Source: a virus (lineage: Duplodnaviria > Heunggongvirae > Uroviricota > Caudoviricetes). From it: 44,448 nucleotides of DNA. The stretch is taken from IMG/VR virus record IMGVR_UViG_2851949629_000004; one strand, given 5' to 3'. The position numbers were made by a program. This document shows, in pieces, positions 24,001 to 30,000 of the stretch (positions within the stretch are counted from its first letter, which is position 1; every line of letters begins with the position of its first letter).

Positions 24001-27000
24001 CAGTTGATTAATATTCAGCACCAGGTTTTTCAACTCATGATCCATATTTCCTCCGGAGAGCTTTAAACATGCATCGTGCGAACAACTTTAAGAAAACGCG
24101 TTCGATGTCGAACAAAAAACACTCAATTCGACATACAAAAAACAAATAATCATTAATAATCAATAAGATGTAAAGATGATGGTGGCCGATAAAAATGCAA
24201 AAACTAGCCTTTTTCCGCGACGCTCCCGCCCCGTGGCAGGCCACCCCACCGGGAGGACCCGTCAGCCTGACAGCCATGACGAACGTCTGATACAGCACCC
24301 TGCATGAATGGCATCGGGATAATCCAGAAAGGAATAGCATCGTACCCACAAGAATCTGTGTGAGTGTCCTGTTTCTTCCACCCCCGCACAGGACTGGCGA
24401 GCATGAGGGACAAACCCGCGAATCATTAGCGCGGTAAAAACCCGGTGTGCATCGTTTTTGATTATTCCCGCACACTCTCGCAGAAGGAGTTCCCCGTCGG
24501 GCTACGGTCTCTGTTAATACGGGAATACGGCGACGATACAGCGCATGATGTGTCAGGCTTGAATACCTTTATCCGTTAAAAGGGATATCAGTTAAGTTAT
24601 CCCGTGTAGGGTATAAGCCATTATCAAAGCCACTCTGTAGGGAGTGGCTTTTGTAATGGCAATAAAAAGCCCCGCGAATACGAGGCTAAATCCTGGTATT
24701 TGTAATGACTGGCTCTTATCTCAACGCAGCCCCTTACCGCGCGCAAGATGCTCAATATCAAGCATCAGCAATGAGATGTTTAATCTGGATTCACTCCAGA
24801 AGTGATCACCACCCTGTCTACAGAGCCAGATGTGAAGGATGATAAGTAAAATTATCGCTATCATCGAAGGCATTGCGTCCTGATGTATTCCTGAAGCGTT
24901 CTCAGTGCTGTTTGGTCGCTGATGATTCCGTCCCGGATACTGAGAACGTTTCGTCCAGCAACTGGAGATAGTTCGACGGTGGCATCATTGCCCATGCCGG
25001 AGGCGCTGGAGGTTTCGGCTGAGGATGGCACAGGGCATTTTCCTTTGACGAACACCCGACCACCATTATCAAGCTTGCGCCGAAGAGCATCATTTTCAGC
25101 TTTCGCATCAGCTAACTCCTTCGTGTATTTAGCATCGAGTGCATCAGCAGAACGCTGGCGCTGCTGCATGTCAGTAATGGTGGCGGTCGCCTGCTTCAGC
25201 TCACTGACTTTTTTATCTCGCTGTTCTTTGTAGGCGATGGCGTTATCACGGTAATGATTGACCGCCCACGACAGGCAGACGATGATGCAGATAACCAGAG
25301 CGGAGATAATCGCGGTTACTCTGCTCATTGTTGCCCCCACAAACAGACTTCACGCTCAATCTCACGACGAGTCATCAGGCCTTTCCATTGCTTACCGCCA
25401 GCGTATGTCCAGCGACGTAGCTGGTCACATGCGCCTTTGATATCGCCCTGGTTTATTTTGCGAAGAAGCGTCGATGTTCTGAAATTGCCAGCACCCACGT
25501 TGTAGACGAACGAGTAAAGAGCGCCGCGCGTTGTTTCCGGTATATCGACTTTGATGTACGGGTTAATTTGTCTGGCGACCGTGGCAAGGTCTTTATTCAG
25601 GAGGGCTTTGCATTCTGCTTTGGTATACGTTTTACCGAGCATGATGTCTTTTCCGGTGTGTCCGTGACATACAGTCCATACGCCAACGATATCTTTGTAT
25701 GGTATGTAGCTGACACCTTCCAGGCCATCGTCACCACTTGGGCCAGTGATTAACACTGATGCTATAGCAATTGCTCCGCCACCAATAGCAGCAGCAACTG
25801 CTTTTCGTAATGATGGAGGCATTATTCACCTCTCGCAGCCTTGCGCTTATCTTCTTTAATCTTGAAATAAAGGTTTGTCAGGTACGTCAGCAGGCCAAAT
25901 ACCAGGCTACCCAGCACACCTATTGCTGCCCACTGTGAGGGCGTGACTTTATCGAGCAGCTGTAAAAACCAGTAACCGGCACTACCTGCTGAGGTGCCAT
26001 AGGCGACACCCGTTGTTAACTTATCCATGGATTTCATAACCCCACCTCGCAGATGCGGGTGCTGTGTAATGGAAATAAAAAGGCCACCTGCGTGGCCACC
26101 AGATTATTTCCCCACCAGCTCGTTTATCTCTTTCACTGTCTGGTTAAACCGCTCTGACTCAAGCTCAACACCTAAGGCCCGACGCCCCAGCGCCATTGCT
26201 GCTTTTATTGTGGAACCGGATCCCATAAAAAAATCAGCAACCAGATCACCAGGTCGACTACTGGCATTGATTATTTGCCTGAGCATATCCGCCGGTTTCT
26301 CACACGGATGTTTACCCGGGTAGAACTGAACGGGTTTATGCATCCAGACATCGGTATAAGGCACGGAGACTGATACGGAGAAATAGCGCCGGAGAGATTT
26401 AAACTCATCCAGCAATTCAGAATATTTGCGATTCAGTGAATCATAAGATGCCACCAGCTGGTGGTGTGGTTGTTCCAGTTGTTGTTCCTGAAACTTCTCT
26501 GCCGCTATACGGGAAAACAGTGCCTGTAACTTCCGATAGTCAGCCTCATTCGGCAACTGCCACTGACTGGCACCAAACCAGTGGGAAACCATATTTTTCT
26601 TACCTGTGGCTTCGGCAATTTGTTTTGCCGTTATACCCAGTTCGGCACGAGCATCCCTGAAATACGATATCAGCGGTGCCATTATGTGCTGTTTGAGTGC
26701 CCTTTCTTTTGCCGCATAGCCGTCACTTTTGCCGCGATATGGCCCCTGGTAATGTTCAGCAAACAGAACGCGCTCTGTGGCAGGAAAATATGCGCGCAGA
26801 CTTTCTTTATTACACCCATTCCAACGTCCGGACGGCTTCGCCCAGATGATATGGTTAAGCACGTTGAAACGTTCACGCATCATGATCTCAATATCAGATG
26901 CCAGGCGATGCCCACAGAACAGGTAAAGGCTTCCGGCAGGTTTTAACACCCGCCAGAACTGGGCCAGACAGTGGTCCAGCCACTTAAGGTAATCTTCGTC

Positions 27001-30000
27001 CCCTTTCCACTGATTGTCCCAGCCGTTGGGTTTCACCTTGAAGTACGGCGGATCGGTAACAATCAGGTCAATGGAATCATCAGGCAGGGACTGAATAAAA
27101 TGCAGGCAATCAGCGTTGATTAAATCAACACTGTTTATTTTTACAGTATTTTTCATGGATCAGTAAGCGTAACTCTGGTAGGCTCACTCTGCTTTTGCGC
27201 TAAAGCAGTGGGCCGTGGTTCGCTTGTGACCAGTAAGCATGAGCGAATGGCTGGCAGGTGCTACCAACACCCACCAGCCGCCCATTTTCACAGCAGGAAA
27301 CCGCCATTACTGGCAGCGTCTGAATTTATTCCCGTACCCGCCGTTATCCTTCGCCAGACCCGCCAGAACTAACTGAGTCAGTATTAACTGGCACCGGGCT
27401 TCGCTTACTCCGGTAGTTCTCGTCATCATGCGTGGCGTTACCCACTTGTCAGCAGGTAAGAAATGAAGGACTGCTGCGGCGGTTTCTGTCATATCTTGCT
27501 GTTTTAGCATGTCTTTTTCCCTTCTGGTTAACATGACATACCAATAACTCTTGTCTAAAAAGCCAGCAAGATAAAAAGTCAGTATTCACGACCACCAGCG
27601 TGTTTACTGTACTGCACCAGGTTTACAGGTACAAAAAAACCGCTCAGCGGCGGGTTTAAGTTGTGTGGCGAAGTAACCACTCTTAACAGCATATTTGATT
27701 TTTTACGATTGTAAACGGTTGATTATTCATCTCCAATAAAAATAATTGTGTGGGTATGCCCTTAACAATGGATAAGAAACATGAATAAAATGACTGTATT
27801 ATTACTTAGCGCAACTATCATTTCAGGTTGTACTTCTTCCGTACCATTGATAAAGAAAACTCAATCAGGAAAACCTGAGGGGGTTTATCAAAATACGACA
27901 AAAGATAAAGTCAAAGATGCCCTTGTGAATTACTGCAATAGTAGAGGGTTGATAATTTACAACGCGGATAACAGCAGTGTTATATGTGGTAAAGAACTGG
28001 AAGGCGGGTCTGCTGTTTTTGGACAAATGTTAATCGGCAATGCCTATTCAACAACCCCGGTATCAAAAGTCAGATTTACTATCGCTCAAGTTAATAACGA
28101 TACAAAAGTGTGGGCCGATATGTGGATGGAAACTCAAATGGCAATGGGGCAAGTACAACAAATGGCTATAACAGACAACGCAAGCAAAAACACTATCCAA
28201 CAACGTCTTGATGAATTAAAACCTTAAGTAAATTAATTAAATAAAATGGGGAGAATAAATCGGCTCCCCACACATTAAACTGATTCAATTACCCCCTCAA
28301 TAAGAGGTCTTCTAACGATCCATCTCTAGCTCAATTTCTAACATCATTAACATGCCATCAACTACACCTTCAGCCTTTTGCAATAAACGCCCAACCCAGC
28401 AATCAGAACGCCCATGTTTACGGGCAAGCGCCATAAACGTCATACCACCTACATAATAATCCACTAATAAATCGTGCAAATCGCTGTTGTTCTTTTTCAG
28501 GCGAGCCATGCATCCACAAATGATCATCGCGTCATCGTCACAACATTGCGGGCGGGATTTTACTTTTGAAGGGATTAGTCCTTTAAATCCTGCAGCAATA
28601 GACGACCAAGTGACATCCTCGTGATTATTTGCCACCCATGCCCCCCAACGTTCAAGAACCATTTGAATATCACGCATCAACTTTCTCCACAAAATCAGGC
28701 CAGCACGCCAATTGCCAGCGCACGATCGATAAAACGAAATATCAGCTCCAGCTGGGAGCCATACTTCTCTTCAAATGCCACGGTATCCGCATGCAGCTCG
28801 TCGTGATGCTTTCTGCACAAAGGCAACACAAAAAGGTCATGCGCTTTTGTACCCATTCCACCCTGACCGTGGCCTATCAGGTGGTGGGGATCATCAGCAG
28901 GCTTTCCACAACATGCACACGGCTGTGTCTTAACCCAGCGCGTGTACTTTTCATTAACCCAGCGGCGGCGTTTTGGGCGTAACATAAAAGACTCCGGCGA
29001 CTCCGGATCCACTTTCAGCGCCAGCACCTTTTTCGCTTTATCCTGGATGATGCTGGTGGCAGGAACCGAAGGCACAAGGTCACTTTCCCGGGTGACAGAC
29101 GGCACAACAGGCTTCGGTAATCTCAGTGCCTTACGGGCTGCACTTTCCGGTAAGGCATCCGCCAGGTCATTACGAATCAGCCACCAGCACAGTTCCGGCA
29201 TTGTCACAACGTGACTGTCATCAAAACCGAGATCCCGACGCACAACAGACAACACCCAGCGGGCACAGTTATCCGTTGCCATTGATTCCAGCCGTTCCGT
29301 GAACTGATCGCGCAGCTGGTTATCGCAGTGCCAGCACAGACGGATTGCACCCGGAGCGTGTCGCATTGTGGTCATGTTCTCGCTGTGCCAGTCGGAATGA
29401 GGCCACTGGCAGCCTTTTTCACGAAGTAACCAGCTTTCAAGACATTCCACGCCACCAGCACGACGGATCACTGCCTCATTGCGGAACACGGCCCGAACGG
29501 CAGGATCATCCGCCAGCGGTTGTGATGCCGCCGGAACGGCACCACTAGCGAAAGATGAATAACGTTCCGGCTCAGGCTCCAGCAGGACACGCCCCTGCAT
29601 AAACAGGGGCATCAGCTCTGAACCTGGCCTGAACAATACGATCCCCATACGCGGGGCAATTTCAGGGGTCAGTAGTGCTCTCACGGTCACCTCAATGAAC
29701 GGTATCGAGCAGCTTTAACAGCTCAGGGAATCGGGATTCGAAGAAATGCGGCTGCGTCTCGCGCGGATTTGCGGGACTGGTGATGTTCTTGCCGAACATG
29801 CAGCCTTTCGCCGTCAGCGACCAGAATTTTTTGATGTTGTTAATCCCGGTACGGCTGTATCGTTCGCGCTGCTCGACGATCCCCAGCTTCACCATCTGGT
29901 GATATGCCTGATTAGCCGTCAGGCGGATACCATACTGTTTCAGCAGTGCACTCAGTGACAGTGTCGGGCGACTTGAGCCATCGTGTGCATCAGCAGGAGC

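Follow-up and report, generated by a model that had tools for sequence, protein, structure and literature searches.

Where does late transcription begin in the Escherichia coli prophage of IMG/VR record IMGVR_UViG_2851949629_000004, and which of several hairpins is the terminator on which its Q protein acts? The record (44,448 nucleotides, here called the window) has its late genes on the minus strand. In the direction of late transcription the order is the antiterminator gene Q, an opposite-strand lipoprotein open reading frame (ORF), a small ORF (orf75), a methylase gene, and the lysis genes S, R and Rz. A first-pass annotation had pointed to three hairpin-plus-U-tract structures on the late strand, any of which might act as the terminator tR', and to two strings that might be the late promoter pR'. 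It had also remarked that obligatory co-expression of the accessory genes with lysis hinges on where pR' lies. This remark is upheld; orf75 and the methylase gene lie downstream of both pR' and tR' as located here.

We consider it very probable that the region controls late-gene expression in a lambdoid E. coli prophage with a Q of the phage 21 family, in the 933W/H-19B/DLP12-like branch. The system is of a known kind, an ordinary switch for the late genes in a lambda-like prophage of E. coli. Enterotoxigenic E. coli strains such as 120899 carry the 771-bp Q-to-promoter block with 100% identity, and it was found at ≥80% coverage in 184 of 5426 complete E. coli genomes. The entire Q-to-S stretch is present at 98.7% identity in PhiR40_1 and PhiR55_1, which were deposited as phage genomes. 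We count the presence of the whole block in these two as suggesting that it functions.

The Q protein and the late promoter

The window Q protein matched PF06530 over the complete domain (positions 1-118 of 118) with an E-value of 2e-51 and a score of 173 bits against a cut-off of 26. PF06530 was its only match in the Pfam search, with none to PF06323. Yin et al. equate PF06530 with the Q21 family, PF03589 with the lambda family and PF06323 with the Q82 family (PMC9388147). The window Q belongs to the phage 21 family and not to the phage 82 family, and the comparison with the phage 82 late promoter and qut region advised by the first-pass annotation was aimed at the wrong family. A phage 82 type for H-19B Q was likewise considered and rejected, as Pfam and the same publication place the family in Q21. 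The published features of the 82 pR' (initial AAA, GCC at +15-17 and a pause at +25) were tried on the window and did not fit. PF06530 was also matched by the Q proteins of H-19B, cdtI, 569R4 and ev017 and by Q21 itself; SfV Q matched PF03589.

The window Q is 82.8% identical to H-19B Q, 79.5% to VT2-Sakai Q and 33% to phage 21 Q. A phmmer comparison with the sequence of the Q21 structure (PDB 6p18) gave an E-value of 7e-9, with 33% identity over 82 amino acids. The gene precedes the late genes and has the orientation of S, R and Rz, and the same Q occurs with 100% identity in more than 30 IMG/VR contigs. The protein ends in ...LEMDR and at 121 amino acids is 23 shorter than the 144-residue H-19B Q. 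In the Shiga toxin (Stx) phages the Q stop codon is situated inside the promoter inverted repeat (TTTACGATCGTAA), so that Q and its own promoter overlap at the 3' end of the gene; the counterpart of this region in the window is non-coding. The comparison was made between 28312..28330 of the window and 2850..2938 of locus L007.

The sequence that overlaps the Q stop codon in H-19B and VT2-Sakai reads GTTTACGATCGTAAAAATCTGCATATCATGATAAGAGTGGTTACATTGCCAC...AACCCGCCGATGCGCGGGTTTTTTTGTACC. Its window homologue, GTTTACAATCGTAAAAAATCAAATATGCTGTTAAGAGTGGTTACTTCGCCAC...AAACCCGCCGCTGAGCGGTTTTTTTGTACC, was found at 27716..27628, about 600 nt 3' of the Q stop codon, and the stretch from promoter to terminator (27715..27633) aligned base for base with the sequences of both phages. 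Within this stretch TTTACA-16-TATGCT, which scored 9/12 in a consensus scan, is aligned with TTTACG-16-TATCAT. Sy et al. reported a distance of 258 nt from the primary start of the Sakai Stx-phage PR', mapped by differential RNA sequencing, to the 3' end seen in Term-seq (PMC7547250). Counting in the VT2-Sakai record gives exactly 258 nt between the 7th base past TATCAT and the point where the U run of the second hairpin stops, and TTTACG-16-TATCAT is therefore the Sakai PR'. By homology to the PR' of H-19B and VT2-Sakai, TTTACA-16-TATGCT is the predicted pR' of the window, with a start near 27681. It would lie about 600 bases downstream of Q, past an inserted gene that faces backward.

The motif TAAGAGTGGTTAC, in the initial transcribed region, was exact in all eight first-round loci with a short PF06530 Q and was absent from SfV, Ayreon, phage 21 and 1H12. 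A second scan covered 163 loci sharing this motif. The region is the expected site of promoter-proximal pausing and Q loading. The hexamer at the pause position in the window is TACTTC, the majority form across clades (134 of the 163 loci). The leader also contains a conserved 5-bp inverted repeat, GUGGU-N6-GCCAC, at +2..+17 (27665..27680, minus strand). The variable base of its 3' arm is only C or U in the 163 loci, which keeps G-C or G-U pairing, and the differences between the window and the Stx phages lie in the loop. In an Rfam scan of 24000..30000, with E-values up to 1 allowed, the only match was a spurious one to a long noncoding RNA, and no family was found for the leader. A literature text search for the initial transcribed sequence as a string gave nothing relevant.

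The -35 hexamer is overlapped by a near-palindrome, TTTACAATCGTAAA. Among IMG/VR loci with a Q at least 94% identical to that of the window and at least 2.5 kb of downstream sequence, TTTACAATCGTAAA was found exactly once in each of the 61 loci, always downstream of Q and never upstream. Its distance from Q was about 590, 1520, 1830, 1870 or 3200 nt, with five different intervening contents. Across the 163 loci the inverted repeat that overlaps the -35 changes with the Q clade while its symmetry is kept. Specifically, TTTACAATCGTAAA of the window Q type is replaced by TTTACGATCGTAAA in the H-19B type, TTTACGTACGTAAA in the ev017 (DLP12-like) type, GCGTACGC in the 569R4 type and GCGGTCCGC in the cdtI type, and by TGTTATAACA, TGGAATTCCA and TTCGTTACGAA with more distant Qs. 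This is the pattern expected of a dimeric, allele-specific DNA-binding site, and so we take the Q-clade-specific repeat as a candidate Q-binding element (QBE). No conserved direct repeat of the kind that forms the phage 21 QBE was found in the 163-locus comparison, the conserved element being an inverted repeat.

A related arrangement was seen in the 1H12-like phages (loci L010 and L054), in which residues 1-113 of Q are 94% identical to the window Q. Some 100 nt past this Q comes a terminator that resembles the StxS/tR' hairpin (GCCAGCCTCCCC..GGCTGG, then a U run), and a pR' with the same TTTACAATCGTAAA is located 1.88 kb downstream, beyond an antisense lipocalin gene. Their pR' has a different initial transcribed region with TGTATAAA, a good -10-like element.

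The three hairpins

Terminator-like sites were enriched in the interval 24500..30000 (14 versus 5.5 ± 2.1 in shuffles). A consensus scan recovered all three hairpins of the first-pass annotation on the minus strand at the coordinates it had given, and the first of them does begin 42 nt past the Q stop codon (28312). The energies and z values in Table 1 are from folding each hairpin alone. The suggestion that any of the three could act as tR' fails: the hairpin after Q is upstream of pR', the hairpin before S is a second downstream terminator, and only 27657..27633 fits. With pR' as predicted, this is the only hairpin in the tR' position, and it would end at about +49.

The hairpin after Q is followed by AUUUUAUUUAAUU, and its tail is U-rich on the minus strand only. 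A terminator-like hairpin was present within 120 nt of the Q stop codon in 43 of 64 distinct Q-to-pR' intervals (≥300 nt) of relatives, against a background of 5%. We read the window hairpin, which is upstream of pR', as an intrinsic terminator that would close the Q unit and shield the convergent cargo gene.

The tR' hairpin is also found after the lambda-type pR' of SfV and Ayreon, whose annotations list it as a terminator, and some relatives have an unrelated terminator at the tR' position. Relatives with GCGGG in the stem have folding energies of about -12 kcal/mol, and the single G-to-T change to GCGGT in the window halves this stability. The stem is otherwise invariant and only the loop varies, so the comparison holds no compensatory evidence for or against the structure. 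In 16 loci of the DLP12-like class GAGCTGG replaces GAGCGGG, a change that breaks the stem.

A pattern scan of viral contigs with AACCCGCC-N5-GCGG(G/T)TTTTT returned mostly unrelated generic terminators, with 10 loci useful for comparing the weak and strong forms. In these the strong hairpin was always present where S follows directly, and the weak form occurred only with accessory genes before S, although 10 loci do not allow a firm conclusion. Among the weak-form loci, confirmation of a t2-like terminator was limited to those that resemble the window.

In the window t2 is directly before S, between the methylase gene and S. It folds with its flanks at -15.7 kcal/mol (z -3.3) and is annotated as a terminator in SfV and Ayreon. 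We regard it as a strong second intrinsic terminator, as predicted from its fold. Homology of the window to SfV, Ayreon and mEp460 extends only from 27656 downward, that is, from the terminator onward, and SfV and Ayreon have a lambda-type pR' with AACGATGGG. Since the shared sequence begins at the terminator while these promoters are lambda-type, 27656 looks like a recombination joint between a Q-specific promoter module and a shared module that starts with the terminator.

Table 1. Features of the late control region, with positions in the window unless another locus is named
Feature	Position	Strand	Description or basis
Q antiterminator gene	28312..28677	-	121 aa from ATG, or 126 aa from upstream TTG at 28692
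Hairpin after Q	28269..28248, with tail to 28230	-	Stem GGGGAG-N10-CUCCCC; -11.5 kcal/mol, z -2.8
Cargo gene (moron), predicted lipoprotein	27781..28227	+	148 aa; signal peptide MNKMTVLLLSATIISGC (…IISGC); between Q and pR'
Possible lipoprotein-gene promoter, TTGATT-16-AATAAT	27719..27746	+	Consensus scan only, 9/12
Predicted pR'	27688..27715	-	-35 TTTACA 27715..27710, 16-nt spacer, -10 TATGCT 27693..27688
Candidate Q-binding element	27702..27715	-	Near-palindrome TTTACAATCGTAAA, then A tract; overlaps -35
Predicted start (~27681) and initial transcribed region	27658..27681	-	AGUGGUUACUUCGCCACACAACUU; motif conservation
Predicted tR'	27657..27633	-	AAACCCGCCGCUGAGCGG+U7; -6.3 kcal/mol, z -1.2; leader RNA ~49 nt
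orf75	27307..27534	-	75 aa; ORF list; phrog_331
DNA N6/N4 methyltransferase gene	26104..27156	-	PF01555, E 2e-42
Predicted t2	26097..26073	-	GGCCAC-GCAG-GUGGCC+U5AUUU; -12.3 kcal/mol, z -3.0
Lysis cassette	24861..26037	-	S 25822..26037, R 25325..25822, Rz 24861..25340
1H12-like site, L010	3393..3560
1H12-like sites, L054	6378..6520 and 8257..8330

Downstream of the control region, orf75 is kept jointly with the methylase gene in cdtI, SfV, Ayreon and mEp460. S is a P21-type holin (PF04971) and R a lysozyme (PF00959). A further strong terminator-like hairpin (24668..24687, minus strand, 8 pairs, tail TTTTATTGCC) is located about 170 nt 3' of Rz and precedes the next minus-strand ORF (23554..24045).

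The Q-to-promoter interval and related systems

The product of the lipoprotein gene matched phrog_3152 (function unknown) with an E-value of 1e-104 and gave no Pfam match. The gene appears to have been inserted, facing backward, between Q and pR', which would place it outside the late operon. Its possible promoter is back to back with pR', and the two -35 hexamers are 3 nt apart. A better-scoring match, TTAACA-18-TAAAAT (27762..27791), is probably spurious, as its start would fall downstream of the ATG at 27781.

The distance from the Q stop codon to the promoter ranged across the 163 loci from overlap, in the Stx phages, up to 2.4 kb, and the largest ORF was on the opposite strand in 60 of the 64 distinct intervals. 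On these comparisons the arrangement in the window would be the common one for this branch of Q and no oddity.

Among the closest known systems are the Stx phages H-19B, 933W and VT2-Sakai, in which PR'-tR' is the source of the StxS small RNA and Q is about 80-83% identical to that of the window. They share with the window a homologous -35, inverted repeat, -10, start region, TAAGAGTGGTTAC and first hairpin with U7. However, their promoter overlaps the Q stop codon, whereas that of the window is 591 nt further on, beyond the antisense lipoprotein gene, and the window has GCGGT and TACTTC in place of GCGGG and TACATT. Homology to the 258-nt leader is confined to about its first 54 nt; the remainder and the 74-nt StxS part are missing from the window. 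A search of the window for this Hfq-binding 3' fragment found nothing better than an 11-nt chance match. Unlike the Stx phages, the window contains no tRNAs.

Phage 21 (pR'-QBE-sigma-dependent pause element-tR'; PDB 6P18/6P19) has a Q of the same Pfam family. Its annotation shows the same compact plan, in which the Q site is embedded in the promoter and a short leader (about 50 nt) runs up to an intrinsic terminator. Nevertheless, the QBE of phage 21 is a direct repeat (ATTGAGCA/AATGAGCA) and the conserved element of the window is an inverted repeat. The phage 21 promoter is 7 nt after Q rather than 591 nt, and the two Q proteins are only 33% identical.

The layout of ev017 and PhiR30_1 (Q-porin-S) is DLP12-like, in the manner of quuD-nmpC-essD in E. 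coli K-12. Their Q comes from the same branch as the window Q, with 85% identity across residues 1-113 of the 126-aa ORF, and they too have antisense cargo between Q and pR', with the same initial transcribed motif and terminator downstream of it. The cargo in their case is a porin gene of about 1.6 kb, pR'/tR' is about 150 nt upstream of S, the hairpin is in the strong form, and both the methylase module and the second terminator of the window are missing.

Two systems with other Q families resemble the window in part. SfV and Ayreon, whose late units are of the type of lambda (pR'-6S RNA-tR'), have the same terminator and orf75-methylase-t2 module downstream of their pR', but their Q is of the lambda family (PF03589 was checked for SfV; Ayreon Q has the same length), their pause element is AACGATGGG, and their promoter and Q site are unrelated to those of the window. 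Phage 82 follows the same general logic, in which Q acts as an antiterminator and polymerase pauses near the promoter in a sigma-dependent manner (PMC5001585, PMC4914094), but Q82 is PF06323 (PMC9388147) and the features of its pR' differ from those of the window. The -10-like element of the 82 pR' was placed at about +9..+14 from GCC at +15-17, sigma binding at 21 nt and the pause at +25.

These comparisons lead us to a wider proposal, which we make only tentatively. In the 933W/DLP12-like branch the -35 inverted repeat may be the QBE, unlike the direct repeat of phage 21. The gap between Q and pR' may be a preferred landing site for antisense cargo, with pR' usually 0.5-2.4 kb from Q. In the window, a weak tR' and a tight t2 might let a constitutive pR' express the methylase in lysogeny while lysis stays locked.

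Late transcription and its alternatives

On our preferred reading, the sigma-70 promoter pR' would start transcripts near 27681. Without Q, RNA polymerase would halt at the weak tR' hairpin and its U7 tract, and polymerases leaking past it would halt at the strong t2 before S. After induction Q would bind the near-palindrome within the promoter and load onto polymerase held in the conserved initial transcribed region. The Q-modified polymerase would then pass both terminators and transcribe orf75, the methylase gene, S, R, Rz and the remaining late operon. Because they are located between tR' and t2, orf75 and the methylase gene are predicted to be inside the late operon and to be transcribed by this polymerase together with the lysis genes. 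The hairpin after Q, outside the late operon, would end the Q transcript before it runs antisense into the lipoprotein gene.

Several points weigh against this reading. The placement of pR' is a prediction by homology to a start-mapped Stx-phage PR'. For that PR', the Sakai start coordinate was equated with the published number through an assumed offset between genome versions, and it is the 258-nt length that was checked. The co-occurrence of Q types and promoter repeats would also follow from simple insertion histories and is no independent proof of binding. A -10-like pause element is doubtful in the window, where TACTTC matches at 2/6 and lacks the final T, versus TACATT in the Stx phages. 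The tR' hairpin is weak (Table 1). Its efficiency as a terminator is uncertain, because Sakai transcripts pass a stronger version of the same hairpin and end at +258 (PMC7547250).

Promoter-like matches in 24500..30000 were at chance level (9 versus 6.7 ± 2.6). Both strings put forward for pR' in the first-pass annotation exist, TTGAGG-17-TAATGT at 28300..28272 and TTGGAG-17-TACAAT at 27736..27708, but neither serves as pR' on our analysis. The former would place pR' directly after Q, as in lambda, phage 21 and the Stx phages, with the hairpin and U-rich tail that come next (28269..28248) as tR' and late transcription running antisense through the lipoprotein gene. We find this hardly credible. 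The string matches the consensus at 7/12 (4/6 and 3/6) and was not flagged by the scan, and matches as weak as this occur by chance about 3.8 times per kb per strand in the window. Its start, near 28265, would fall inside the 5' arm of the hairpin (28269..28264), so the RNA could not form the hairpin. Moreover, no mapped PR' is homologous to it, 61 of 61 relatives have the Q-linked motif elsewhere, and relatives with other cargo genes differ strongly in sequence after Q. For the latter string the annotation had chosen the right region (27700..27740), and the overlapping TGGAGA-16-TACAAT does score 9/12, but the register is out by about 21 nt. That late transcription starts near 27701 from this string, alone or together with TTTACA-16-TATGCT, is very unlikely: its -35 region is conserved in no homologue in the alignment, TACAAT overlaps the true -35 TTTACA and belongs to the conserved inverted repeat plus -35, and the length of the mapped Sakai transcript fits TATCAT as the -10 rather than the equivalent of TACAAT.

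Another reading keeps the same pR' but takes 27657..27633 to be leaky, with t2 as the effective Q-dependent barrier; in the lysogen, a constitutive pR' would then drive orf75 and the methylase with lysis kept locked. The halved stability of the window hairpin is in its favor, as are the restriction of the weak form to loci with accessory genes before S and the description of the Sakai PR' as constitutively active, with transcripts passing the stronger homologous hairpin (PMC7547250). Nevertheless, a short stem can be enough for termination, the U7 tract here is perfect, and SfV, Ayreon and L134 combine the strong form with accessory genes. Because the loci are few and share ancestry rather than being independent, low-level methylase expression from pR' in lysogens, with t2 keeping lysis locked, stays a minority reading, a possibility that we judge unlikely. 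It is highly improbable that the control region is a decaying, non-working remnant in a defective prophage. A Q of 121 rather than 144 amino acids, TACTTC rather than TACATT and a weak tR' hairpin could be taken as a truncated tail, a degraded pause element and a weakened terminator. However, the Pfam domain of Q is complete, the identical protein recurs in the >30 contigs noted above, the whole block recurs at 98.7% identity in the genomes deposited for phages PhiR40_1 and PhiR55_1, and TACTTC is the majority form across clades.

With pR' at TTTACA-16-TATGCT, the question of which accessory genes belong with lysis is settled in favor of orf75 and the methylase gene, which would be in the late operon, and not the lipoprotein gene. 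For the family as a whole, the co-varying inverted repeats provide candidate Q sites where the only structurally solved site is that of phage 21. Because 933W-like Q is clearly similar in sequence to Q21, the Q21 structures should serve as templates for the Q proteins of Stx phages. In this Q family, a late promoter next to Q should not be taken for granted. One Stx2a prophage, whose Q is divergent and is separated from stx2a by two genes, has been described in a published comparison as 'lacking PR'' (PMC10562709), and a displaced promoter is a likely alternative in that case. The correct location of pR' matters for predicting toxin expression, because the stx genes are transcribed from it.

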